From the NCBI GenBank assembly GCA_046563655.1, contig CM102290.1:12834001-12898000 (forward strand): 64,000 bases of DNA, read 5' to 3'. The notes beneath the pieces were generated by a model, which made no database searches, had not been told where the DNA came from, and saw nothing but the letters and a program-made list of their open reading frames with translations. The stretch comes from Yuukianura sp. NJ FZ-2021 (Eukaryota). Position numbers and translations under genes: made by a program. Of the stretch, positions 14,238 through 54,343 are shown piece by piece. Positions within the stretch are counted from its first letter, which is position 1; each line of letters begins with the position of its first letter.

Positions 14238-16703
14238 ATGATGGTGACCAGTTTTGGACACTTCGTCGTCATAGTTGCCCTGCTACAGCTTACACGGTAA
14301 GAATTCCTTATAGTTCGTTTTGAATTCATTTGTTAACTTTTGTTTGTTTTTTGTTCCAAGGTTTGCAGTTTGGGCAGACGATGCTTCGCCGCTAGGAAAC
14401 GATGCTTCCGGCTCCGGTGACGCACCAACTATAAACATTACAGATTCGACAGGAGGCGGTGTCAGTATCGTCGTTCCTGGAGCCTCTTCGGATGTCACGT
14501 TTTTGGACGAAACATGTCGCTCCAAAACTTCGGAAGTCGTATCGTCGTTCCGCAATCCGAATTACCCGGGCAAGGAAAACGGTTCACTAATATGTCACCA
14601 TGTTGTGATTCCGCAAGAAGGCTACTGCGGCCTAAGGTTAGTGTATTATTTTATTTATATTATTGTTATTATTATTAGTATATATTATAGTTAGGCTAAT
14701 TATGCAACAATTTCAGGGTGGAGTTCATGGAAGCCACTTTCGCTGCACCAGTAGAAGGATGCTCCACAGATACTTTCCAAATCCTGAACAGCATGGATGC
14801 GCCAGCGGTGATCCAGTGTGGCTATTTAGCTGGTTACCAATGTAAGGCATTCTTTCGAAAAAAAAATTATTAAATATATAGAAAAATGAATAAAAATTAA
14901 TTAAAATAACAAAATTATTCAAAATAATTTCCAGTTTCCGTACGAGCTCGTGCTGGCAGTCGAGTTACGCTTTTGGTAACGAGTCAAACTGAATCTTCCT
15001 GGAGTGTTAAGCTTACGCAGATACAATGTTCCAGTGTTTTGGCAGCCGAAGGTTTGTGTTACTCGAAATCCAACTTACTAATACCATGAAAGTACTGAAC
15101 ATAATATTTGGTGTTCTAAGTCGAGATATCGTTTTCTTGCAGATCTTTTACCCAAGACGTGTGGTGTTCCGGGCGATCCGTCTTCGGCTTTAAGAAATGA
15201 CGTGGAGGATGTGAGAGTGGTTGAGCCAGTGGAACTCCTGAAGTCGTCAATTGATAAGCCGCCATCGTTTCAACCTGAAGCCGCTAGAGGTCTTTTGTTT
15301 AAAAAAACTTGTACTTTTATGTACAGTACATTCTCTAAATAAGCAACTAAAAACCTCAAACCTTTCTCCATTTCTTTTCAATGAGGCCTCAGTGCGGCCT
15401 TAAAGGAAGCCGCACTGAGGCCCACGACAAGAAATGGAGAAAGGGCTGAGGTTTTTAGTTGCTTATTTAGAGAATGAGGTGTACTTCTAATCAATCGAAG
15501 TTCTGATCTGATTTAGAACCGGATGTGTTGCTGCAAAAGGCTGTTTTACGGTACAATACCAACCTCAGAATCGTGAATGGCAATGTGACTGGGGTAACTG
15601 CTGGCTTTAAACGAAAGATACTTTGAATACTTCTGGATTAGCCCTAAAATCGACAATTTCTGTAAAGGTGAACGAATTCCCATGGCAAGTTTTGCTATTA
15701 GTTGGAGGGAAACCTATCTGCGGAGGTTCATTAATATCCGAGTTCTATGTACTGACGGCTGGACATTGCGCTGCTGTCTTGTAAGTTCCAATGTAACTTA
15801 CTTGTTGCAAGTTTCAATCAAGGTGATAATTGGTTTGAATAGAAATGCACTTCCATCGCTGGCTTCTCTTGTGGTTGTGGATTTAGGCGACCACGATCTT
15901 ACCAGTTCAACGGAGAGTCCGAATAGAGCCTATCGTGTGGAAAAGATAATCCCGAACATACAGCACGACGTCGTTATCAACGACATTGCGCTGCTCAAAC
16001 TCAAGAAGAAAGTGGAGTTTACGATTGCCATTGCCCCGATATGTCTCCCTTCAGCACTTGATCTCGGTATTACCTTTAAACTTAACTTCTAAACCACGGA
16101 TTTAACTCAACATCACTTTGCTAAACAGGAACATATGATGGCAAAATGGCTGTGACGAGTGGGTGGGGTAAGACGAGCGACGGCTCAGTTATTTCCCCTG
16201 TTCTTCGAAAAGCTGAATTGCCAATTGTATCGATGGAAGTCTGCAAACAACTTTGGTAAGTTCGTCGCTTAAGTGCTCACTTTTTCCTGCGATAACGCCG
16301 ATAATTTTAACTTTTGTTCTAAATATTGCTTACTTTGTACACTCATTGTTCAAAAATTATGCAGGGAATTGGTCGGGGTGGGCGGCGGAGCTATGATCCA
16401 AGAGTCGATGATTTGTGCTGGCGGGGGTTCAGTGGGTCCATGTAACGTAAGTCAAACGTTTCAATGGGAAACTGCCTACATTCGACCTGCGCGTACTAAT
16501 CACTCAACTTTTGTGTTATTACAATTTAGGGAGATTCTGGTGGGCCATTGATGATCAAAGATTCTAGCACCGGGAAATACAGCCTCATTGGAGTAACAAG
16601 TTTTGGATCACTTCGGGGTTGCGCTCTGGAAGGTGTACCAACCGTTTTCACAAGAGTCCCCGCATTCCTAAACTGGATTCTCCTCAATATTGCTGAAGTT
16701 TAG
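14238..16703 (+). CDS. Secreted CUB-domain S1A serine protease (chymotrypsin/elastase-type pocket)
   Basis: Hydrophobic signal peptide; CUB-like FRNPNYPG...CGLRVEFM...CSTDTFQI...IQCG; activation site NLR|IVNG; triad VLTAGHC, NDIALLKL, GPCNGDSGGP; Gly rather than Asp at the S1 position. Confidence 0.9.
15324..15481. mobile_element. Foldback MITE flanked by TA in a protease intron
   Basis: Almost the whole element is an inverted repeat (CATTCTCTAAATAAGCAACTAAAAACCTCA ... TGAGGTTTTTAGTTGCTTATTTAGAGAATG; inner GGCCTCAGTGCGGC/GCCGCACTGAGGCC). Confidence 0.75.
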
Positions 16704-17050
16704 CACATCTTTGAGTCATTTTATTCCTATATACACAGTACTTCAGAGTAAACAATTATAACTCACAATCATAACAACCATACTACACAAAACATATAGC
16801 ATTGCCATTAACATCGTATTGGTATTGTCAATCCTGCTTGAAGAACTTACGAGTTAAATTAATTAGCTGCACATAGCAATGAGCAAAAAAAAGTGCAAAA
16901 TACAAAATTGATACGGGAACATACCAATACAAAAATGGATCCTAGGAGACTGTGTCTGTAGTAATATTGAGATTCAAACTTTGCAGCGTTCCCGTAAGCC
17001 TATTTCAATCAGACGACAGTGAGTCCGAGTCCATGCTCCCTATTGTATCC

Positions 17051-20000
17051 TCAAGCTAGTAAACAACAGATCAGTGTTAGCTCGCATCAAATCATAAAAC
17101 TAAACGTGAAACTTACTCTTATTGGAGAGTGAACGTTGCGAGCGTAAGAAAGGCGCTCCGTCCTTCGTCAAAGTCGTTTGCGGAGGGCCACGAAGACGAC
17201 TAGTAGATGGACTGACTCCGGCAGTAGGCTTCGGACTAAAAGCAGTCGATGGCCCAGCGGCAGTTGCAATATTGAGAGCATCGACAGTCTTTTCCTCCTT
17301 AGTTGTCATGGACGTTCGGGCACGTTTGTTATCCACGGAAGTCTTAGTTAAGCTTCTGCCAGCTCTTTTTGGTGCCGTTTTTGGAGCAGTAGGTGGCAAA
17401 GAAATCTTCTTGGAAGAGGTTGACGACGTAGAAGATAATCTTGAACGTGATCTGGAGACAGGCCCTTCACTTTCTCTGGGATCTAAATCTGCTTCATCCT
17501 CCTGTTGAAATAAAAGTAACACCAATATTATGTGTATGCAACTTTTAAAGTAAAGGAACCAAGAAAATTAAAAGCAATTCATCTCCAGCTATTACTTACA
17601 TTCATAATCTCCCAAATCTTTTGACTCAACACCTTAACACCAGCTTTCTTCAGAATGGAAGCATTTAGAAGCATCAGATTCAAACTACTAAGAACTTCTG
17701 ATTCAGTCACCAGGGTACCATCCTTGATACTATTCATTACCATTGGAAGTGTGGTATCCCTAAAACATAAATAAAAGCTGTAAGTTTTAAGTTTTTAGGT
17801 AAGTGAATTAGAATCAAAATACGTCTACTTACGCCTTGAAGAATTTGGACATTGTGGCTTTTCCGGAGTTGTCCTTTGCTTTGCGCTTCAAAATGCTACT
17901 TTCCTTCAAGCTCATTACTCGTTCCATTTTACTCAGAAGGTGGCGTTTTTCTTCTTGACTGAAAAAAACGACAATATAACGTTAACACTTATTTAAGTAA
18001 TTATTAATAATTACACATAGTAATAATTATTTAACACTTATTAACGTAAATATTTATTTAAAAAAAACCTGATCCGTTGTGACTGAACTGGCAAACTCAT
18101 GGGAACTTTAATTCGTGCTTGGCTGCTCTTCGTTTCTTTGAATTTGGCCAGGCGTTCTTTCAACAAGGCGAGATCAATTCCAAATTTAAAGAGTTGATCT
18201 GGATCTTCCACGACATTCGTGTCATGATTATCCTTAGCAGTATTTCCGCCGTGTGAAGCAGTATTTCCGCCGTGTGCAGCAGTACTGCGTCTAGCCCTAC
18301 GTAAAAACAATCATCAGTAATGAAGAGCAGTATCTAAGTTTCGAATTCTAACTAAAAATGTATCTGTAATATAACTAATCCGTCTATCTAGAAAACTAAT
18401 GTAAATCCAAAGTACTTTAAAGTAATCTTGCCTCAACTAATTCAATACATGTTAGAGTCAAATACCTGGTCAGGCGTGATGGTTCCACTTTAGGCGTAGT
18501 ATCTTCCACTGGAGAGGGAGAGGCCATGTTTGGCTCCGAATGTGGAAAAAATGTGGTCGCTTCCTTATACAGCATTTCCAGTCGAGAGTTCTGGTTAGGA
18601 AGTAAAGTAAGTCTGGTTATAAGACGCAATACTCAAAAATCTGCGTTCAACTAACCCGAGTTCTTCTTTTCCTCTCACTATTTCGAGCTTTAGCATCAGT
18701 CATTTGTTCATTCGGAGTCTCCACTGGACATTCTACATCCATTGCAGCTTCAGTAGTGGACTCGTTCGTTGCTGGTCGCTCTCTGACGCTAGTAGTCTGG
18801 ACATCATTTTCGTTCTGAAACAAAAACGAATCGGTTAAATTAGTCTCCTGTTAGATTGCAATTTAGTAATTAAGTCCATTGCATAAAGTATGCAGCAATG
18901 CACACAACAAACCTGAGTTGTAACAGAAGGCGTTTCAGCGTCGGCCACATCCAGTAACAAGGTTCCTGCAGTATCCTGGTTTACTATTTCCTCTCCTTCC
19001 TTATCTCCAGATATGGTAGACTTCTGCTCCTCCAATGCGCTGTGTTTGGATTGAACAGAAGACGAGGCATTATTAACTTTGATCACTGCAAATTCCGACA
19101 CTACGACGGCTTGTTCAGCTACGACAGCTCCTGTATCCAAGCATTCAGCATCCTCATTGTCAACAACGTCCTCGTCCACCTCAAGCTCCTCCGCTGTGTC
19201 TTTGGCAAATTCAGGATTCGGTGGAGGTGGTTCCTCTGTGTTATCAATGTCATCATCGGAAGTATCACGTTCCACTGATACATTCTTGGTCATCGGTGGT
19301 GAGACTAGACCATGGTCAGGAAGTTGTTGATCTTCTTCTGTCTCTTGAACTTGTGGGGCACCAGTGCCACTTTCATCATCTGTGTTATCTGACGTCGTCC
19401 GTGCAGAATTTGAATCAGGGTCCATGAGTGCCGTTACATGTTTGATGTTCAGAGCCGGCAGCTGATTGTCACTCTCGGTTCCCGAAGTCGCCACTTCCAT
19501 TTCCTCTGGTTCACTTGTGGCATGAATTTCCGCATCGGCGCCATGGATTTCCTCTTGTAAGACTTTTGCAACCGGAATCGGAGTCATGCGTCTTGGTGGT
19601 GGCGTTTTGTTTACAACGGGTGATTCAAATGAATTGTTCTTCGAGTTAGGTGCGGAAGGAAGCTCCTTATTAGTTTCTGCATCCGAAGATGTAAGAAGAT
19701 CGACACATTCAATTTCAGAACTGCCCGCTGTGTCCATGGACTCTTCTTCCTGATGAGATTCAAGGATTGTGTTAGAACTGATGCCCGTCTTGCACTCAAC
19801 TCCACCGGCATTAGTCTTCTCTATGTGTCCAACAGCCTTTGACGAAGAAGCATCAGCCTTTGTAGGAGACTCTGTTAAATCGATCAGTTCTATCTCTTCT
19901 TCTTCCGACAAATTGGCCATATCTGAAATAAGAATCAAACTATTATTTCACTTTTGACCACAACACCATTTGATCTAACACAGAGTCATTCCAGTATAAC

Positions 20001-21778
20001 GTTAACATGAACAGTGATTCGGTCAAAAGTAGCCAAGTCATTCATATCATACAATCATTCGTATCCGTGTCCATCAGCTGTGACATAATCGAATGGAATT
20101 GAGTAAGCCTAAAGCATACCGTCAGTGTCCGAGTTGGAGCGGACTTCAACTTTGATAGCTGAGCTAGAAAAAGCGCCTACGACTGGCACTGGAACTGCAA
20201 TGCGAGTAGTTGCAGCTTCCTGTACGGTCCGTTCTGCTCCACTGACAACTGGAGGCTGAGTTTGATGGTTATCAGGTTCTGGCATTGACTGTGGAATTGA
20301 GACAAGATTTCCAAGAGGTTTTGTTCTTAACAAACTGGCCAAGGTTATAGTCGATTCTGATGAAACAAGAAACAAAAGTTGCACTTTACCAGCAGTTGTG
20401 TTTTTATAGTAATGTAAAAGGAAATGGATGTTTACACTTGAAAAATACCTTGAAGTGTACGGTTAGCTGTTTTTGAAGGGCCACAGTATGATTCGATCAC
20501 CTTCAAGTCTTGTTGCGGAGGTTGTGAACGTAGGCCAACTCCATATTCTTCGCCACCAGTATTATTCTCTGCGTACTGTTCATACGAAAAATTAGTTAAT
20601 GTGGTGTAAAAATAACGCCACACTTTAGTTGCTATGAAGGATTTTTAAATGGGTAGATTTTTTTTTACTTACATAAGCGTTCATAAGGTCTTCAGAAAGT
20701 TCTTCATCTGTTAGAAAAAAAAAACGAAAACCACTAATGCATTATGTCACACACAGTTCATTGACGGAAGTGAGGCAAGTAACAAACTTTTTGTTACCGT
20801 CTTTTCTCGTGGCACCAACGTCCTCGGGATCGGAGTATTCATCAGAATCAGATAGTTCCTCAGGTGCAGATTTCCTGATAATCAGTCATAAGCATTTTTG
20901 ATTGAATGAATAACTAAATAAATGTTGCCAATTTAATATTTCAAAAAGTGGCTCACATAAACCCTGTATAAAAATCCTCCAGTTCTTCATCAGTTAGCAA
21001 GTCCTTCTCCACGGAATCGGCAGAGTTGATTAAGTCGGTATAAATTCCAGACGCTTTGGCGATATCGTCTTTAAGGGCCTGCGTGTATTCTATTAGGACA
21101 CAACAAAAACTGACATGAAACATTCAGTCTCTTTAGTTCAAATTGTGCAAATCCACATTGCCGTAAAACCATAGTAACAAATTGCATTTCCGGTACTCTT
21201 CTAAAGGGACTAGTAAGTAAAACGTAACCTCACCCGGGACAAGAAGGCTCAGTAGCTTGTCAGCAGCCTCGCCAGTATCCGGATTCTCACTCCACTGAAC
21301 ACTACTGCACATATGAATGAATTGTGACTCGCAATATTCTGGAGAAAACCGAATGTCCGCGTCGGATAACTGTCCAAAGTCAGCCATTTGAACTGCTGTT
21401 TTCGCCCTAAAACAAACATTACTCTACAGTCGTGTTCTGTTTGTTTTCGTTGTTTCAAGTTACAAATTACTTCGTTAGTAATACGTCTATCAACAAACAT
21501 ACCAGTCACCCCCATTTCGTAATACTGAACAGCATAGAGCTATAGCTTCCCTGAGGTCCAGTTGAGTTGCCAGAAGTATAGTCTGGCTGGTATATCCTGT
21601 AATCCGAATACAGAAGAGTTAGATTATACATGGCTCAACGACTGAAAGGAATGGAACTTTAAAGTGATAAGTTGTACACGCACTGACCTGGAAAAGCAAC
21701 GCTGTCTGGGTCATCCTGTTGAAACGTATAGTATTCATTCGATGACGATGCAGTCGGGTCAGCATGATAGAAGGTCAT
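17051..21778 (-). CDS. Divergent BRD8-like protein: N-terminal SANT/Myb-like region plus coiled coil, long acidic disordered middle, degenerate bromodomain, basic S/T tail; last exon uncertain
   Basis: Spliced N-terminus LREAIALCCSVLRNGGDWAKTAVQMADFG...FSPEYCESQFIHM resembles the BRD8 N-terminus; exons 17833-17958 and 17600-17759 give a bromodomain-patterned segment (TTLPMVMNSIKDG...LNLMLLNASILK). Confidence 0.62.
18237..18284 (-). repeat. 21-bp coding tandem repeat (TA[A/S]HGGN x2+)
   Basis: GCAGTATTTCCGCCGTGTG(A/C)A repeated about 2.3 times, in frame. Confidence 0.9.
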
Positions 21779-21878
21779 ATTGATGATGAAGAACCCAAAA
21801 TACTCAATTACTCTTTATGTAATCTGGTTTCAGTCGTGGTTATAACTAATTTCAACTAACCAAATGTTAAGAATGATA

Positions 21879-22111
21879 CAGTAGAGTTTCCCATTTATTC
21901 CATTTGCCAAATACAAAACAAATTGCAATTGAACTACACTGGGGTTAGAAAATTACATGAATCTGAGGTCAAATTGTCATTGGCAAATCCCCCATTTGCC
22001 ATTTCGTGTTTCATTTTGCCAGTTTATCGCCATTGTACGGGTGCGGGTTTTGTATTTGTCAATTGAAATTGTTTTGTATTTGGCAAATGGAATAAATGGG
22101 AAACTCTACTG
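21879..22111. mobile_element. Tc1/mariner-pogo-type MITE with 43-bp perfect TIRs and TA target duplication
   Basis: TA|CAGTAGAGTTTCCCATTTATTCCATTTGCCAAATACAAAACAA ... exact reverse complement |TA. Confidence 0.9.
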
Positions 22112-22610
22112 TACATTAATAATCACTGTCAATCCTTAAGAATTGAAATAGTACCTGACTTTAATGTCCCAGCCAGATTACCTTACACGACATGCCGCCG
22201 AAACGGACAGGAGGAGGCAAATGGTCCAGGTCGAGAGGAAAAAAAGATTGACTAATCCACTGATGCACTACAGAAACGGGGTAGCCTAAATGTCGGTTAC
22301 GTATTATGACTTTTTACTAGCATACGGTGCGTCTTGCTGGGGCTTCGCTCCGCACTCACTCAATCGTCGTGACTTTTTAAAAAAGACACGACAATATTTT
22401 TTTTCAGTTTTTTTTATGTTTCAAGTTGAGGAATGTTGAGGAAAATTTAATAATCATAATTCTGTGAGATTATTGCGAGAATTTAATTTGAACGTCTACA
22501 AGGCAAAGCTTTCACGCGTTTGCTTAAGTGGGTGAAAGCTAAAACATAATAAGATTGGTTATGCACATTGGAACTGGATGAAAGGCAACGCGTAGGGGGT
22601 TTAGTTTATG

Positions 22611-25511: not shown

Positions 25512-25584
25512 AGGGGGCACGCAGATTTGAACTACGGACCTCTCGATCTGCAGTCGAATGCTCTACCAACTGAGCTATACCCCC
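25512..25584 (-). tRNA. tRNA-Cys (anticodon GCA), intronless
   Basis: GGGGGTATAGCTCAGTTGGTAGAGCATTCGACTGCAGATCGAGAGGTCCGTAGTTCAAATCTGCGTGCCCCCT: 73 nt, full cloverleaf, U discriminator. Confidence 0.97.
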
Positions 25585-25963: not shown

Positions 25964-28900
25964 TTATTCGACTTTGGACTTCTTTTTAATCTTCTTGTCC
26001 TTATTCTTTTGGACAGATTTGGATTTGAGCCGTCCAGAAGACGTGGCTGCTGCGACTGATGCCATTTTTGTTGTAGAAGCTGCTCTAGCAGCGGGACTAG
26101 GTTTGACAGCGCCAGTAGAAGCGACTGGAGCTGGTTCTTTTTTGCTTCCAGCTGGAACTGACTGTCGTCTGTGCTTCTTCCCACCTTGAGGTGTTGTGGC
26201 TGTTTGGACTGACGCAGTCGCAACGCCACTTTCAGCCTTAGGAGCAGCCTCACCTTCTTCTTCAACCTCATCGTCAGGAATGAAAACGTAGCGTGGACCG
26301 TGGCGCAGAAAAGCTCCGCCTTTGAGTCTGCGCACAACAGTTCTAAGCGTCGTCTCTTTCTTCTTGCGAAGCCACCTTCGACGTGCTCTGCCAGTCATGT
26401 CATTCAGATGATCTGCTTCCTTTTCAGACAAAATGTCGGAAATTGCTCGTTCGAAATCGTCGTCATCATCTTCCGGTGGATCCTCCCCTTCGTGAAACTC
26501 CGACAATCTGGATTGTTGATGCAAAAATTCAACCAATCGGAGTCCTCGTGGTGGAGCTCCAGGAAGGACAGAAATTCCAAAGAAAACCCACATCATTGCA
26601 GCTCCAAGTTTTTCATCAGCTGGAATCAAAAATTCAAAAATTTCAGAAGAAAACTTAAAAAATAGAACATTTTTTTTTGAACTTACGCATAGACGGGTCA
26701 ACATTGACAAACGCTGAAAAAACTTTTGTCATTGAAACGTCCGTTTCTCCAGCCGGATCGTTTTCGCGCTCAGCTGAGCTGAGTGTCACGCCAACATCGG
26801 CAAGTACATCCCTCAAAACGTCGTAAACATACTTGTGTCGATCTTCTTCAAACTGTTTAGCAAATTCTTCAACGAAGTTCCCCACAAGCCCTTCGTCCGT
26901 CATTGCAAAAAATGCAATGTATTTGACAATTGCCGTTTCGGCGGTAATTCCGGTTTGGCGGGAAGCTGCTCCAAGGAGTCCCTTGATCTCCTGCTCCGTT
27001 TTTTCGCCAAACGATTGACGTAAAAGTTTACCAAATTCACCAAACTGAATGGAGCCAAGTGGTTGGCCAGTTTCTGCCGACTTTTGAATAACAGCATTCC
27101 GAAGTTTTGCGACTTGAGCTCGGAAGAGATGATAAACGCCTTCGTCAAGCCGACCTTCCAGAATGTCCAGGAACTGTGTCAGTTTTGGCTCAATTTTCCC
27201 CAGATTTCTGCAAGCTTCGACGATATTGTAGGCCCATTCCATTCGCATGGCAGGAATGCTAAAGCGATTGCGCAAATACTCAACAAAAAATTCTTGAAAT
27301 GAGCCAATGACGGGCATTTCTTCTGGAATGTCAGACAGAGCTGACATTCCGTAATTACCAGACGCCTCTTCCTCTTTGGCCTCTGTGTAGCGACGCAGAG
27401 CTTCCAAGCGTTCGGCACGCATTTGCCAAATCTCTTGAACGATTACAATGACGTCGCGACGTGAAAAAAATCGGCGTCGCATTGGTTTGTCCCATTTCAT
27501 AAATTGGGGTACTTGAGACCCCTTGCCCAGAGGCGTAATGAATTCTGGTGGACCAAGAAGTTTTTTGCCAGTCAATTCTTGAACCAGCGTCGGAACAATT
27601 TCGGCACTAGATTTTCCTTCAATCAGCGATTTCCATTTGGGCATACCGCCTTCAATATGCTCAGCAACTTTTTCCCAACTTGGACGTGGAGTGGGACGCT
27701 TGCGCAGATCTGTGACCAAATCCTAAAAGAAGTTCAAAAATTCTGTTGAAAAACTCCGAAAAATACATTAGAGTTTTTCTACTGAGCGATCAGCGAAAAA
27801 AAAAACGAGCGTTTTTGCCAAAATCTCACATCACCCCGACCTCATTTGAAATTCTTTGAACAATAAGAGAATCAACTAAAAAAGTTAAAAATATTTAAAA
27901 TGAATTTATAACAGAATTTTAAAAAAGTATAAAAAGTTCGTAATTGATTTTTCAGATTTTGAAAATGTCATTTTCTAAATTATTATGAAACATTTTGGAC
28001 TTTGTATCTTATATTGTTCAAACAATTTCGGTTGCAGTTGGGGTGAGGTGAGATTTTTTCCAAAAACGTTCGTTTTTTTTTTCGTTGATCGCTCAGTAGA
28101 AAAACTCCAACGTTTTTTTTTTCAGGTTAGGTTGCTAGAAATAGTAAAAAGTAATTTTGAAAAATTCAAAATATGAAATTTCAGAAACCTGCAATTTGTT
28201 TCTGGAGCCTGTTAAGCTTTCGATTTGATCCTTCATTCCTTTAACTTCAGCAACGACGTTGTTGTACTTTTCGATCAGTTTCGCATGATTAGTTTCCAGT
28301 GTGGTCATGATTGCTTTCAGTTCATCAAAATCACGACGCGGAATCACATCGGAGTAGTCTGCTTCCAAAATCGTGATTCTAAAACATAAAATCAAAACTT
28401 TACAACCAGATACTTTCCAAAACGAAATCAAAATTTTGAAATTTTTGCAAAACTTTACCGATGATGAGCTTGGGTCAAGTTGTTTCGTATAGTTTGGAGA
28501 GCACGACGGAGCACAACTGGATCATCGGTATGCAAGAGCTCCAGTTCTGCTGCGTCTGGATCGTCATCGTCGAAATAACGCCTGACAGGTTTTGGACCAA
28601 TACCGAGTCTACGCCGAAAATCATTCATCTCCACAATCATCAACTGGCGCCGGTCCTCAGATGCACGACGTCTGTCATGTTCGTTACTCAACGAAGTTTC
28701 AAGTCTGGGAAAAACAAAACCACAAAATCAAAAAAGTTTTGTCAAAATTTTCAAGATTTTGGTCTACATACCTTTCCAAGATGTCGGTCATTGTGCGAAT
28801 AGCAACATCCTGTCTGTCGCAATGGCGCATGAGCAGAAACAACTCTTTTTCGAATTCAGTCATTTGCTTGAACCCTTCAACTCTAGCTGTCGCCTCTTGC

Positions 28901-30012
28901 TTGTCCAGACTCACCTCCAGACGATGAACTTTTCTCTTAGCTCTGGTAGTCAGAACAAGTTTTCGCTCATGATCAGACAGGATGGTTTCGTAGTCCGTCT
29001 GGATCTCAGCCAAAATCGGCGCCAACCCTTCAAAGTGACGCATTAACGTGCAGAAGGCTCTGCGGTAAATGTTGAGTCTTGCGTACAACTTCTCCTCCGG
29101 TTCGTTCAGGCCGTTCCGGTTTGAGCAAATTTCGGCAATGGTTAGCGGAGTGGTTTTGGTAGGCGTGGGTTTGGGCTCCTCACCACGCATTATTTCAAAG
29201 AGCCCGTCAATTTCGGAATGCGGTGCTGGACAATCGGTTCGTTGAATTTCCATCTTGACATCCTTCACTAGCCGCCGTATGAAGTTTGATTGGGCAATAA
29301 CATTTCCTTGGAAAGGCTATAAAAAAAAAGTTAGGTTAAATGTCATCATATTTAGTCTGGTTAAAAGTTAGGCTGGTCAGAATTGTCTAGGACTGTTCAA
29401 GTTCCGTTCCGTTTCCACGAGAAACGGAACGAAAAACAGAAACAGAAATGGCACTGGAACCGAGTTTTTGAAAATGGAACGGAACGAGTTTAAAGATTGG
29501 GAAACGGAAACGAAACGAAACGGTACCGGAAATAAGTTCCGTTCCGTTTCTGGTACCGGAACTTGAACAGCCCTGTCCAGTTAAAAAGTGAGATAGTATC
29601 TTACAGCGAGTTTCAACAGAGCCTCACTTCCGTCCGTTTCTTCATCGTCGTCATCCCTCCAATCTTTGTTAAAGTCGTCCATGACTCCACGAGAACGTGA
29701 CTCTGCAGGGTCGCAGGTCACATCTTGAGGACGTAGCGGCAGGTCAAACAGGTCATCGTCCTCGGGACATTGAGTTTCCTCAAAGGCCTTCATGAACATG
29801 GCCTTGGTCGACTTGTCTTGGGTTCCATACGCTTGATCCAGTTGTTTCATGAGCTTGTACGCAAAAACGTCGTCGCGAATCAAGTCAAACTGCGGCTCTG
29901 CTGAGGTGTCGTTGGGCATCTTGGGCGGAATGGGCTCTTCTTCACTCCATTTCACAGATTGACCGCCGCCTTTGCCTTCTCGACCTCCCTCACTTCCGCT
30001 TCCGGAACTCAT
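25964..30012 (-). CDS. TSNAXIP1: Translin-associated factor X-interacting protein 1, multi-exon, with a long K/A-rich C-terminal tail
   Basis: RLNIYRRAF...LAPILAEIQTDYE, YSDVIPRRDFDEL, TPRPSWEK, PLGKGSQVPQFMKW...SRRDVIVIVQEIWQMR, EWAYNIVEAC. Confidence 0.85.
27768..28110. mobile_element. MITE with ~80-bp imperfect TIRs in a TSNAXIP1 intron
   Basis: GAGTTTTTCTACTGAGCGATCA...AAAATCTCACATCACCCC versus GGGGTGAGGTGAGATTTT...TGATCGCTCAGTAGAAAAACTC; AT-rich core; no clear TSD. Confidence 0.8.
29388..29575. mobile_element. hAT-like MITE with subterminal AACGG/CGGAA repeats
   Basis: TAGGACTGTTCAAGTTCCG / CGGAACTTGAACAGCCCTG inverted termini; many GAAACGGAAC units. Confidence 0.8.
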
Positions 30013-30215
30013 GTTGCTCCAGAATCAATACTTTTGAATTTGGTCACTTCAATTGGCCAGATTTTGAAAATTTTGAAACAAGGAGACGACGACTATGGAA
30101 GCATAATTTTCAAAATGAACGTTGAGTTGCAGCAGCAGTGTGCAAGGAGCGCGAGCGAGCGACCAACCCAGCTAGCATTTGTTGACTTCAAGGGACAAAC
30201 TTCCAAACAAAAATC

Positions 30216-49413: not shown

Positions 49414-51537
49414 TTAGAATTCAATTGAGAATGGGAAGTATGGACTTCCCTTGACCCATTCCAAGGCGACAAGTCGTCCATTACAGTCCAAAGAGTCAAT
49501 GTACTTAACATCCTCTGGTGACAATTCGAAGTCAAACACATTGGCATTCTCAATGAGACGCTCCTTTCGCACAGTCTTGGGGATGACGACAACGTTCTTC
49601 TGAACCTGGAATTTCAAAAGGCGGGAAAATCGAATATCTTTGAACACGGATGGGAAATATGTCAGAAAACAGGAAAATATTTACCAGCCAGCGGATGATG
49701 ATCTGAGCAGGTGATTTCCCGTACTTCTTTCCTTGTTCAACCAATTTCGGATCATCTAGGAGAACTGGATCCTCAGGTTTAGCCCAAGGCCTGTACACAA
49801 AGACAACGTTAACAAATGACACGAAGTTAAAAACTGATTGGACAGTTTACCTGTCCGGTGACCCGAGTGGACTGTAGGCAGTCACAGGAATTCCTTTGTC
49901 CTTACAGAACGCAATCAGTTTGTTTTGGTTCAAATACGGATGGCATTCCACCTAGGTCGTAATCAATTTAATTATGTTTTTACAAAAATTCAAATGCAAA
50001 AATTCAAGTTTCAAAAGTGCCATTTTTGACCGTGTTGCTGGATATCCACTTTTTTTTAGCATTTCGTCCAGGAGATATCTACTGGATACATCCGGATGAA
50101 ACCCCGTTTCCGATGGACGAAATTGAGTTTCGTCCGGAAGAAACCAGTAAAACCCGGATATATCCACCACTTTTGAGGAGAGTAGAAAAAATATTTTATC
50201 CAGCAACACTGCCTAATCTAAATAAACAGTTTACCTGGTTCATTGCTGGTTTGATGGTACAAATATCCAGAATTCGTTGGATTTGTTGACTGTTGAAATT
50301 CGAAACACCAATGGATCTTGCAAGTCCGGCCTTGGCACACTCCTCCATTGCCTTCCATGTCTCAACAAAGTCAATGTCACTCAACAACGTATTCCCTTGC
50401 TCATCCTTTGGGAAGAGTTCATCGCCCTCTTGGTAGCCAAACGGCCAATGAATCAAGTACAAGTCAACGTAGTCTGTCTGCAGAGATTCCAGCGTCTTTT
50501 GCAATCCAACCTTCACGCGATCCTTTGAATGATACGTGTTCCAGAGCTAAAAACAATTATGAAAGTTAACCGAAGGAATTGAAATCTGTGGATTCCAGAA
50601 TAAAAGGTACCGTAAATCTTCTAATAGTGCCCCAGCCAAGTGTACGAGTTCTATTCGACAGCGTTCACGGGAGGGGTACTAGGCAATTACATGGGCAGCT
50701 ATATGGGAATGGGGTACTATTTGAAGATTCACGGTATGCTAGTTTAGTTCCACTCACTTTGCTTGTAAGAAACAAGTCTTCTCGCCGAACAACTCCTTCC
50801 TTAATTTTCTTTTGGATCGCTGCACCAACTTCTGCTTCATTTGCATAGGCAAGAGCACCATCGATGTGTCGATATCCAACATCGATGGCATCCTCCACAG
50901 TTGCCTGTACAACTCCGGGAGATGACTGATTCCATGCAAGAAATAAACGACAAATTAGTTCGAAGGTATTCAAAGGACTACCGATTATAATACTATGACC
51001 TTCAATGACCTTCTTACCTTCCAAGTTCCAAGTCCCAAAATGGGAATTTCGTATCCCGTATTCAACTTTACTCCAGGTACGTTCTACAAAAAAAAAACAT
51101 CGATCAATCGACATCTCCCATTAATCTGGGCGTGTATGGCATTGAACTGTTAATGTAATATTCAAAGGTAGTGCAGAGCCACATCCACATGAGACAATGA
51201 AGCGAAAGTGAGCAGTGATAGGAATATTAAGTTGAGCTAAATGACCGAGGTCATGAATTATTTCCATTTTTTGTAGATTAACACAAAACCACCAATCTAC
51301 TCATTGAATGAGCAATTTTTTATGTAGCAATTGCGAATTCCCACATTTTTTGTGCAATTCTCTGGCTCCAGAATCTTACTGTACCGTCACTCAACTCACG
51401 GTTTACATCCCTATATCCAGTACCAGTATCAGTTACTGTCCCATTGTGGAATCCAAAGCCATACCCTACTTTATGTCAACAACCATTCCCGCCCAAACTA
51501 AATAATTGATTAAATTAACTACTGATACCTTTAACAT
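49414..51537 (-). CDS. Aldo-keto reductase (AKR1/aldose reductase-like), tandem copy A
   Basis: [91 protein letters not shown]. Confidence 0.96.
50030..50211 (+). mobile_element. CAGTGTTGCTGG-family MITE in an AKR copy A intron
   Basis: C(C)GTGTTGCTGGATA / TATCCAGCAACACTG termini; absent from the equivalent intron of copy B. Confidence 0.8.
50610..50734. mobile_element. TA-flanked Tc2/pogo-like MITE in an AKR copy A intron
   Basis: TA|CCGTAAATCTTCTAATAGTGCCCC / GGGGTACTATTTGAAGATTCACGG|TA. Confidence 0.78.
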
Positions 51538-52526: not shown

Positions 52527-54343
52527 TTAGAATTCAATTGAGAATGGGTAGTATGGACTTCCCTTGACCCATTCCACGGCGACGAAGCGTCCATTACAGT
52601 CCAATGAATCAATGTATTCAGCATCCTCTGGTGACAATTCGAAGTCAAACACATTGGCATTCTCAATGAGACGCTCCTTTCGAACTGTTTTCGGGATGAC
52701 GACGACGTTCTTCTGGACCTGCAATTTCAAAAGGCGGGAAAATAAAGTTATTTGAATACTAAAAACCAAAATATGTCGAAAAACGTTCAAATAGTTACCA
52801 GCCAGCGGATGATGATTTGAGCAGGTGATTTGCCGTACTTCTTTCCTTGTTCAATTAGTTTCGGATCATCGAGGAGAACTGGATCCTCAGGCTTTGCCCA
52901 TGGTCTGTACACAAACACAACGTTAACAAATGACATGAAATTAAAAACTGATTGGACAGTTTACCTGTCCGGTGATCCGAGTGGACTGTAGGCAGTCACA
53001 GGAATTCCTTTGTCCTTACAGAACGCAATCAATTTATTTTGGTTCAAGTACGGATGACATTCCACCTAATTCATAAATAAACGTGTAAGTGAATTTAAAA
53101 ACTCCCGCGTTTTAAAACTTCAAATTTGGATTGGAACTATGGTCTTTTTTTTAACCTAGCTAGAATCCAAAAAACTAACCTGGTTCATAGCTGGTTTGAT
53201 GGTACAAATGTCCAGAATTCGTTGGATTTGCTGACTGTTGAAATTGGAAACACCAATGGATCTTGCAAGTCCGGCCTTGGCACACTCCTCCATTGCCTTC
53301 CATGTCTCAACAAAGTCAATGTCACTCAACAACGTATTCCCTTGCTCATCCTTTGGAAAGAGTTCATCGCCCTCCTCTTTGTAGCCAAACGGAAAATGCA
53401 TCAAGTACAAGTCAACGTAGTTGGTCTGTAGAGATTCCAGCGTCTTTTGCAATGCTACCTTCACCCGCTCCTTTGAATGATACGTGTTCCAGACCTAAAC
53501 AAATCCATGACCAATCAACTACACAGAATGCACAGAGTGAATATTTAGCGCGAACGGAGTATAAAATCTGAATTCTAGAATGGAAGGTACCGTAAATCTT
53601 CAGATAACCCCCAAGCGTACTAATTCTTTCCTCGAATCTTTGGGGCGGGGTACCTGTTAGGGAGGGGGCACTATATCTTGATTGACTTCCGGGGGTAGGG
53701 GTACAACATCGGGCAGCTGTATGGGAGTGAGGCACTATTTGAAGATTTACGGTATGTTAGTTTAGTTCCACTCACTTTGCTTGTAAGAAATAAGTCTTCT
53801 CGCCGAACAACTCCTTCTTTAATTTTGTTTTGAATGGCTGCACCAACTTCTGCTTCATTTCCATACACCAGTGCACAATCGATGTGTCGATATCCAACAT
53901 CAATAGCATCCTCCACAGTTGTCTGCACAACTCCGGGAGATGACTGATTCCATGCAAGAAACAAACCACAAATTAGTTCGAAGTTATTCAAAAGTCTACA
54001 GATTATAAGGCTATGACCTTCAATGACCTTCTTACCTTCCAAGTTCCAAGCCCCAAAATGGGAATTTCGTATCCCGTATTTAACTTTACTCCCGGTACGT
54101 TCTACAAAAAAAAATTATCGATTAATCGATGCCATACACGCCCATTAATGCGGACGTGTATATTAATCGGCGTATGTGGCGTGCGTTGTCTGTTGTTTTT
54201 TGTCCCGAGATGAAATTTAAAAACGGATTCTAATCTTATTTTAGTCTTTTCTGATCTTATTTTAAGCCTTTAGTGATCGGCAATGATTATTTCAGCGTTA
54301 TACGCAAGTCCGCGTTATACGCCGATAAATAGTGTACCTGCAT
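52527..54343 (-). CDS. Aldo-keto reductase, tandem copy B
   Basis: [46 protein letters not shown]; same exon structure as copy A. Confidence 0.96.
53590..53752. mobile_element. Same Tc2/pogo-like MITE at the equivalent intron position of AKR copy B
   Basis: TA|CCGTAAATCTTCAGATA / GGCACTATTTGAAGATTTACGG|TA with matching flanks. Confidence 0.78.

Follow-up and report, generated by a model that had tools for sequence, protein, structure and literature searches.

A selectively constrained 15-exon gene for an orphan-like acidic protein in Yuukianura sp., and its tentative likeness to BRD8

We analyzed a minus-strand gene in a 64,000-nucleotide stretch of the genome of Yuukianura sp. NJ FZ-2021 (GenBank assembly GCA_046563655.1, contig CM102290.1, positions 12,834,001 to 12,898,000; the whole stretch is hereafter referred to as the window, and positions are those of the window). 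The gene comprises 15 exons and 14 introns, and frame-consistent GT..AG pairing of neighbouring open pieces joins its exons into a single open frame of 1056 codons. As judged from comparisons of DNA, the gene is real, protein-coding and under purifying selection, with its splice junctions being predicted. An earlier note on this DNA had read the gene as a highly diverged relative of BRD8, a subunit of the NuA4/TIP60 complex, whose bromodomain had lost its acetyl-lysine pocket. We instead favour, with about even confidence, the reading that this is a real gene under selective constraint whose protein is either restricted to its lineage or evolving very fast, and that it resembles BRD8 no more closely than chance would allow.

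Gene model and selective constraint

The model was built by scanning all neighbouring minus-strand open pieces between positions 16900 and 22000 for frame-consistent GT..AG pairs, which yielded one 15-exon model. The coding sequence (CDS) runs from 21778 to 17103 on the minus strand, with the ATG at 21778-21776 and the stop codon at 17102-17100, while an AATAAA is found on the minus strand at about 16725, beyond exon 15. All 14 introns are of the GT-AG type, with lengths of 65-197 nt and an A+T content of 62-84%, as compared to 54% for the exons. The gene is nearly invisible in the list of open reading frames (ORFs), because only three of its pieces, of 370, 155 and 117 aa, reach 110 aa. That small exons in the span 17051-21778 are spliced into a gene hidden from the ORF track had been proposed in the earlier note, and this proposal is borne out by the joined 1056-codon frame found at this position. 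Both peptides quoted there are also present in the model, the N-terminal one in exons 2 and 3 (model residues 45-94) and the C-terminal one in exons 13 and 14 (model residues 831-909). The exons of the model are as follows:

21688..21778, minus strand: exon 1, residues 1-30; start codon at 21778-21776 with in-frame stops upstream; donor GT after 21688
21503..21596, minus strand: exon 2, residues 31-61; first half of the N-terminal motif, LREAIALCCSVLRNGGD, followed by a W codon split by the intron
21234..21406, minus strand: exon 3, residues 62-119; second half of the N-terminal motif (...FSPEYCESQFIHM)
20963..21089, minus strand: exon 4, residues 120-161; last part of the N-terminal region that is rich in hydrophobic residues
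20798..20874, minus strand: exon 5, residues 162-187; start of the acidic region
20673..20707, minus strand: exon 6, residues 188-199; the model frame is the top score by codon table
20449..20575, minus strand: exon 7, residues 200-241; frame-consistent splice sites
20120..20356, minus strand: exon 8, residues 242-320; two synonymous X1 differences (see below) among those listed
18913..19922, minus strand: exon 9, residues 321-657; long acidic low-complexity stretch with 23% aspartate plus glutamate and an isoelectric point (pI) of 4.1, presumably disordered
18656..18814, minus strand: exon 10, residues 658-710; basic cluster ERKRRTR at the end
18466..18590, minus strand: exon 11, residues 711-751; frame-consistent splice sites
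18069..18296, minus strand: exon 12, residues 752-827; basic, with an in-frame 21-nt tandem repeat
17833..17958, minus strand: exon 13, residues 828-869; putative helix Z and ZA stretch of the earlier note; no Pro and no Tyr
17600..17759, minus strand: exon 14, residues 870-923; putative helices A, B and C of the earlier note; includes LMLLNASILK
17100..17501 (including the stop codon at 17102-17100), minus strand: exon 15, residues 924-1056; basic Ser/Thr/Pro-rich tail, pI 10.8

To assess constraint, DNA contigs of two runs, X1 and X5, were compared with the window, with both runs being pooled in the counts. X1 carries the organism label of the runs in which this stretch is best represented, while X5 represents a second organism (organism B), and about 1-5% of the bases differ per contig. 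It should be considered when referring to the numbers below that they rest on the best-supported 40 of 129 substitutions and 12 of 23 insertions or deletions (indels). In this best-supported set of 40, 32 substitutions fall in model exons. Codon position 3 accounts for 20 of these 32 listed exonic substitutions (binomial p 7e-4), and 19 of them are synonymous while 13 are not, as compared to the 23% synonymous changes expected if changes were distributed randomly in the CDS (p 1e-5). At the level of individual exons, codon position 3 carries 12 of the 19 differences listed for exon 15, and all three differences listed for exons 13 and 14 (two of them in exon 13) are synonymous. The listed indels (best 12 of 23) are all intronic and form three clusters, in introns 6, 12 and 14. 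Finally, when codon usage was scored against a table derived from 2265 codons of the surrounding genes, the model frame came out best in each of the 15 exons. There is some circularity in this test, since the lack of stops in the model frames follows from how they were built.

These data bear directly on the possibility that the locus is non-functional, either as a pseudogene in decay or as a set of open pieces that line up by chance. Such a view would fit with the finding of no relative in any database searched (see below) and of no RNA run for this stretch. However, a frame that remains open for 1056 codons over 15 exons, with GT-AG borders at 14 of 14 introns, speaks against it, as do the synonymous and third-position excess and the exclusively intronic position of the listed indels, and we accordingly regard a non-functional locus as highly improbable.

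Two further observations on the compared contigs should be mentioned. In intron 12, one X1 contig joins position 17967 to 18060, thus skipping 92 nt (17968-18059), a skip that probably stems from polymorphism in intron length or from the presence of a second haplotype. When positions 17000-17755 are compared with 18797-20183, the divergence of X5 is higher at the 3' end of the gene (35 letters out of 756, and 34 out of 934) and lower in the acidic exon 9 (9 letters out of 712, and 6 out of 700). This pattern runs opposite to what is predicted for a fast-evolving disordered linker, and its cause may lie in the structure of haplotypes and not in constraint.

The predicted protein consists of parts with distinct compositions. 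Residues from about 30 to 160 form a hydrophobic-rich region (43% hydrophobic residues) that is probably helical. This is followed, from about 160 to 750, by some 600 residues of acidic, low-complexity sequence with 17-23% aspartate plus glutamate and a pI of 4.1-5.0, presumably a disordered linker. Residues 752-923 are basic (pI about 10) and present amphipathic peaks near residues 833, 874 and 911-914, together with a uniformly hydrophobic stretch at 890-900, and the protein ends with the basic tail encoded by exon 15. The basic clusters ERKRRTR, KRKAK and NKRAR resemble nuclear-localisation signals and may point to nuclear import. The tandem repeat in exon 12 (18236-18284; 21-nt unit, 2.3 copies, 96% matches) is in frame and encodes a 7-residue repeat (…HGGNTA…) in the basic region ahead of the helical module.

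Searches for related proteins

All profile, sequence and fold searches used single exons separately, such that the queries were short and were not accompanied by an alignment of relatives. When 11 of the 15 exons (all except exons 1, 5, 6 and 7) were scanned against Pfam with hmmscan at E <= 10, no family was obtained at or above the cut-off, with the output consisting of five sub-threshold chance rows from unrelated families, none of which came from exons 2, 3, 12, 13 or 14. The Pfam Bromodomain profile (PF00439), named in the earlier note as a check of its reading, likewise returned nothing when exons 13 and 14 were each submitted alone, a test of low power given their lengths of 41 and 53 aa, respectively. 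As a control, 19 single-exon pieces of neighbouring genes were submitted to the same procedure, and 11 of them were named at E <= 0.001, eight above the curated cut-off; these control pieces, at 110-355 aa, are longer than exons 13 and 14.

Comparison with proteins of known structure gave a similar outcome. A phmmer search of the PDB at E <= 10 with exons 2, 3, 4, 12, 13 and 14 returned nine rows, with neither BRD8 nor a bromodomain among them. The best row, at E 0.17, was a Vps22/Snf8 chain, the rows for exon 12 (two) and exon 4 (one) were at chance level, exon 2 returned no row, and exon 13 likewise gave nothing.

Exon 3 (57 aa), in which the N-terminal motif is completed, was also compared exhaustively, using phmmer, with 1,835,955,588 representative proteins, and BRD8 was not found, although the power of such a short query is low. 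Its sole match (E 1.4e-4) was a 2674-aa protein without a Pfam family, in which the same 30 residues were matched at more than 20 internal repeats. This match is spurious, because the protein is internally repetitive and more than 20 of its copies were matched. Word-index searches revealed no relatives of exon 9 among proteins of 184-588 aa and 589-2000 aa, and nothing for exon 3 among longer proteins at E <= 10. A protein language-model atlas gave no usable match for exons 14 and 3, for which the recognition values were 1680 and 1623, respectively, where most known families reach 2300. Finally, tblastn searches of metagenome contigs with exons 9 and 14 yielded no relative.

The N-terminal region raises the question of whether the gene is a diverged member of another known family, for example a protein with a Myb/SANT-like N-terminal domain that is unrelated to TIP60. 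Myb/SANT-like domains share a general look, namely a helix and G-x-W, after which comes another helix containing Cys and an aromatic residue, and the N-terminal motif of the predicted protein resembles this general pattern. Moreover, the N-terminal domain is split by an intron and was thus never presented whole to Pfam. Nonetheless, neither exon 2 nor exon 3 gave a Myb or SANT row in Pfam, even at E <= 10, the PDB was blank for both exons and the atlas was blank for exon 3. Membership in another known family is, in our view, improbable, although less so than a non-functional locus.

The helical C-terminal module and the comparison with BRD8

The region encoded by exons 13 and 14 is the one that the earlier note had read as a bromodomain, and it is cut by an intron at the putative ZA loop into 41 + 53 residues. 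A bromodomain folds as a left-handed bundle of four helices (Z, A, B and C) whose loops include ZA and BC. When modelled by AlphaFold2 from the single sequence, i.e., without an alignment, exon 14 gave a short helix (residues 4-12), a six-residue turn and a long helix (residues 19-52), with a predicted local distance difference test (pLDDT) score of 85.1. Exon 13, modelled in the same manner, gave one helix over residues 2-40 of 41, with a pLDDT of 88.5, and this helix is unbroken, with no loop at the expected position of the ZA loop. A Foldseek search of the PDB with the exon 14 model returned nine rows, all at E >= 6, and fold searches with this model gave generic rows only. Structure prediction followed by Foldseek, which had also been put forward as a check, thus yielded plain helices and generic matches for these single-exon segments. 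What does hold from the earlier description is a hydrophobic helix that retains the LMxxNA motif, since exon 14 contains L-M-L-L-N-A after a short helix and a turn.

The residues that would form an acetyl-lysine pocket can be considered separately from the question of ancestry. Residues 828-923 include a single Pro and lack Tyr altogether, and a Leu-Lys pair follows L-M-L-L-N-A-S-I at the position where the alignment of the earlier note places Tyr-Asn. The stretch that leads from the first helix to exon 14 is rich in Lys and Ser, in contrast to the hydrophobic, Pro-rich sequence of a ZA loop. An acetyl-lysine pocket is defined by an anchoring Asn at the end of helix B and by a hydrophobic ZA loop that is rich in Pro and supplies a Tyr, and these features are therefore all missing from residues 828-923. 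As read from the predicted translation, a canonical acetyl-lysine pocket is absent from this segment, whether it derives from a bromodomain or not. The earlier claim that the pocket residues are gone is thus correct in so far as the Tyr, the Pro-rich ZA loop and the Tyr-Asn pair are absent, while its other half, namely their loss from an ancestral bromodomain, received no support from any of the tools used. Indeed, a segment without any bromodomain ancestry would be just as likely to lack the pocket residues.

Several features of BRD8 are relevant to the comparison. Human BRD8 has 951 aa (isoform 1) or 1235 aa. Its bromodomain 1 covers codons 705-813 when numbered along isoform 2, and is the part through which BRD8 reportedly binds MRGBP (PMC11462934). 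BRD8 is described as a subunit of NuA4/TIP60 and of TINTIN that bridges MRGBP-MRG15 to the N-terminus of EP400, and is treated as the functional equivalent of yeast Eaf5 (10.1101/2021.08.11.456009; PMC11330486), with the two proteins presenting no recognisable sequence similarity according to one of these sources (PMC11330486). In Leishmania, BDF8 (LmxM.33.2300) has been proposed to be a degenerate bromodomain protein that lacks the conserved Asn and Tyr and was detected by HHpred only (PMC9279504).

The alternative to be weighed most seriously is that the gene descends from BRD8, as an orthologue or a paralogue, and that decay of its bromodomain has left a bundle of helices that is reader-dead, such that the protein is a pure scaffold. 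We consider this a real possibility, albeit a less probable one than the orphan reading. The architecture is colinear with that of human BRD8, comprising an N-terminal module of two motifs, a long acidic low-complexity middle and, at around 80% of the length, some 100 residues of helical module ahead of a tail. The size is also alike, with 1056 aa here as compared to 951 or 1235 aa for the human protein (PMC11462934). Order and proportions thus fit, although neither terminal module could be identified. In the N-terminal module, R-E...S-V-x-R-x-G...W, followed by F-S-x-x-x-C-x-S-Q-aromatic, is present in exons 2 and 3. In the C-terminal module, L-M-x-x-N-A lies in a hydrophobic helix after a short helix and a turn that contains Gly, and the amphipathic peaks fall where helices Z, A and C are expected, while the intervening helix B is hydrophobic throughout. 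The three differences listed in exons 13 and 14, all of them synonymous, also count in favour of this reading.

The quantitative side of this likeness is less favourable. We take the N-terminal block to be worth roughly 25-30 bits against human BRD8, on the basis of a hand estimate. Such a value would stand out in the comparison of a single chosen pair, yet it is ordinary when a whole proteome is searched, and the C-terminal block alone is at noise level by the same kind of estimate. The motif comparison as a whole is tentative, every profile, PDB, HMMER, atlas and fold result is without support for BRD8, and exon 13 is predicted as a single unbroken helix with no ZA loop. The differences from human BRD8 are hence the lack of a Pfam Bromodomain match for exons 13 and 14 and of a bromodomain row in the PDB, the lack of a BRD8 match for exon 3 among 1.84 billion representatives, and, in residues 828-923, the absence of Tyr, the single Pro and the Leu-Lys in place of Tyr-Asn. 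Accordingly, the BRD8 or bromodomain identity proposed in the earlier note has so far not been upheld, as no profile or structural match was obtained in any single-exon test, with the power of these tests being low for queries of 30-75 residues used without an alignment and for a domain that an intron interrupts at its putative ZA loop.

A more specific form of BRD8 descent is that the gene is this lineage's BRD8, with a bromodomain turned into a reader-dead helical bundle that still docks MRGBP and EP400. We judge this form to be unlikely, somewhat more so than BRD8 descent as such. In its favour, a bundle with a dead pocket could still serve as a docking module. Moreover, acetyl-lysine reading would not be needed for the bridging role, because BRD8 is regarded as the functional equivalent of Eaf5, which has no bromodomain (10.1101/2021.08.11.456009; PMC11330486). 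If BRD8 descent is right, the protein would thus be akin to Eaf5, the TINTIN anchor in NuA4, in being a bridging subunit without an acetyl-lysine reader. Leishmania BDF8 would offer a precedent for a degenerate bromodomain (PMC9279504). BDF8 is alike in having a C-terminal helical region that lacks the conserved Asn and Tyr and is invisible to ordinary searches, and is unlike in that its remote homology was found by HHpred and that both the organism and the complex are unrelated.

Proposed role, genomic surroundings and meaning

The orphan reading, which we continue to favour, draws directly on the structure of the gene, its constraint, the composition of the protein, the tendency of exons 13 and 14 to form helices and the fact that no family could be detected. 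If it is right, the hydrophobic-rich helical N-terminal region and the basic helical module (residues about 785-925) could dock partners, while the polyanionic middle could engage basic proteins, such as histones. Judging by composition, the protein would then act as a nuclear scaffold, and would do so without reading acetyl-lysine through a canonical bromodomain pocket.

Four points weigh against this reading and need to be considered. First, single-exon queries of 30-336 residues, used without an alignment, would miss a remote homologue of about 25-30% identity. Second, the domain order is colinear with that of human BRD8, with the helical module of about 100 residues lying at 78-88% of the length. 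Third, both N-terminal motifs appear to align, at equal spacing, with the BRD8 motifs given in the earlier note. Fourth, the nuclear location and scaffold role are suggested by composition alone.

The window as a whole is that of an intron-bearing, animal-type genome with about 40% G+C. Single exons of the neighbouring genes were assigned by Pfam to protein kinase, trypsin, BBS1, TSNAXIP1, cytochrome P450, aldo/keto reductase and CNNM families. Downstream of the 15-exon gene, a gene for a trypsin-like serine protease is found on the plus strand at about 14300-16703, with a GDSGGP motif near 16530. The protease gene and the 15-exon gene converge tail to tail, with about 400 bp between their ends. 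On the other side, about 100 bp upstream of the start codon, a 237-bp element (21877-22113) carries 48-nt terminal inverted repeats that are 98% complementary. This element looks like a miniature inverted-repeat transposable element or a hairpin, and no further copies of its arm were found within the window at up to 3 mismatches.

Further upstream, a tRNA-Cys (GCA) is encoded on the minus strand at 25512-25584, between the BBS1-like and TSNAXIP1-like genes, and an Rfam scan of the whole window revealed one tRNA only. The large minus-strand gene at 26655-30024 contains the TSNAXIP1 N-terminal domain, and its 355-aa exon (26655-27722) is without a Pfam family. Two adjacent and near-identical aldo/keto reductase genes lie on the minus strand at 50196-51120 and 53156-54114; their exon translations differ at few residues, and the pair is a tandem duplication.

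As it stands, the gene is one more unannotated, orphan-like gene for an acidic disordered protein, which makes for a useful, if unsurprising, annotation. The case also illustrates the limit of exon-by-exon searching, in that a domain split by introns into 41 + 53 residues escapes judgement. Should the gene instead prove to be a BRD8 with a reader-dead bundle, it would represent a natural experiment in an animal, in which the bridging role of BRD8 in TINTIN/TIP60 is separable from acetyl-lysine reading, converging on the condition of yeast Eaf5. Descent from BRD8, if true, would thereby bear on whether it is the reader or the scaffold function of BRD8 that is essential.

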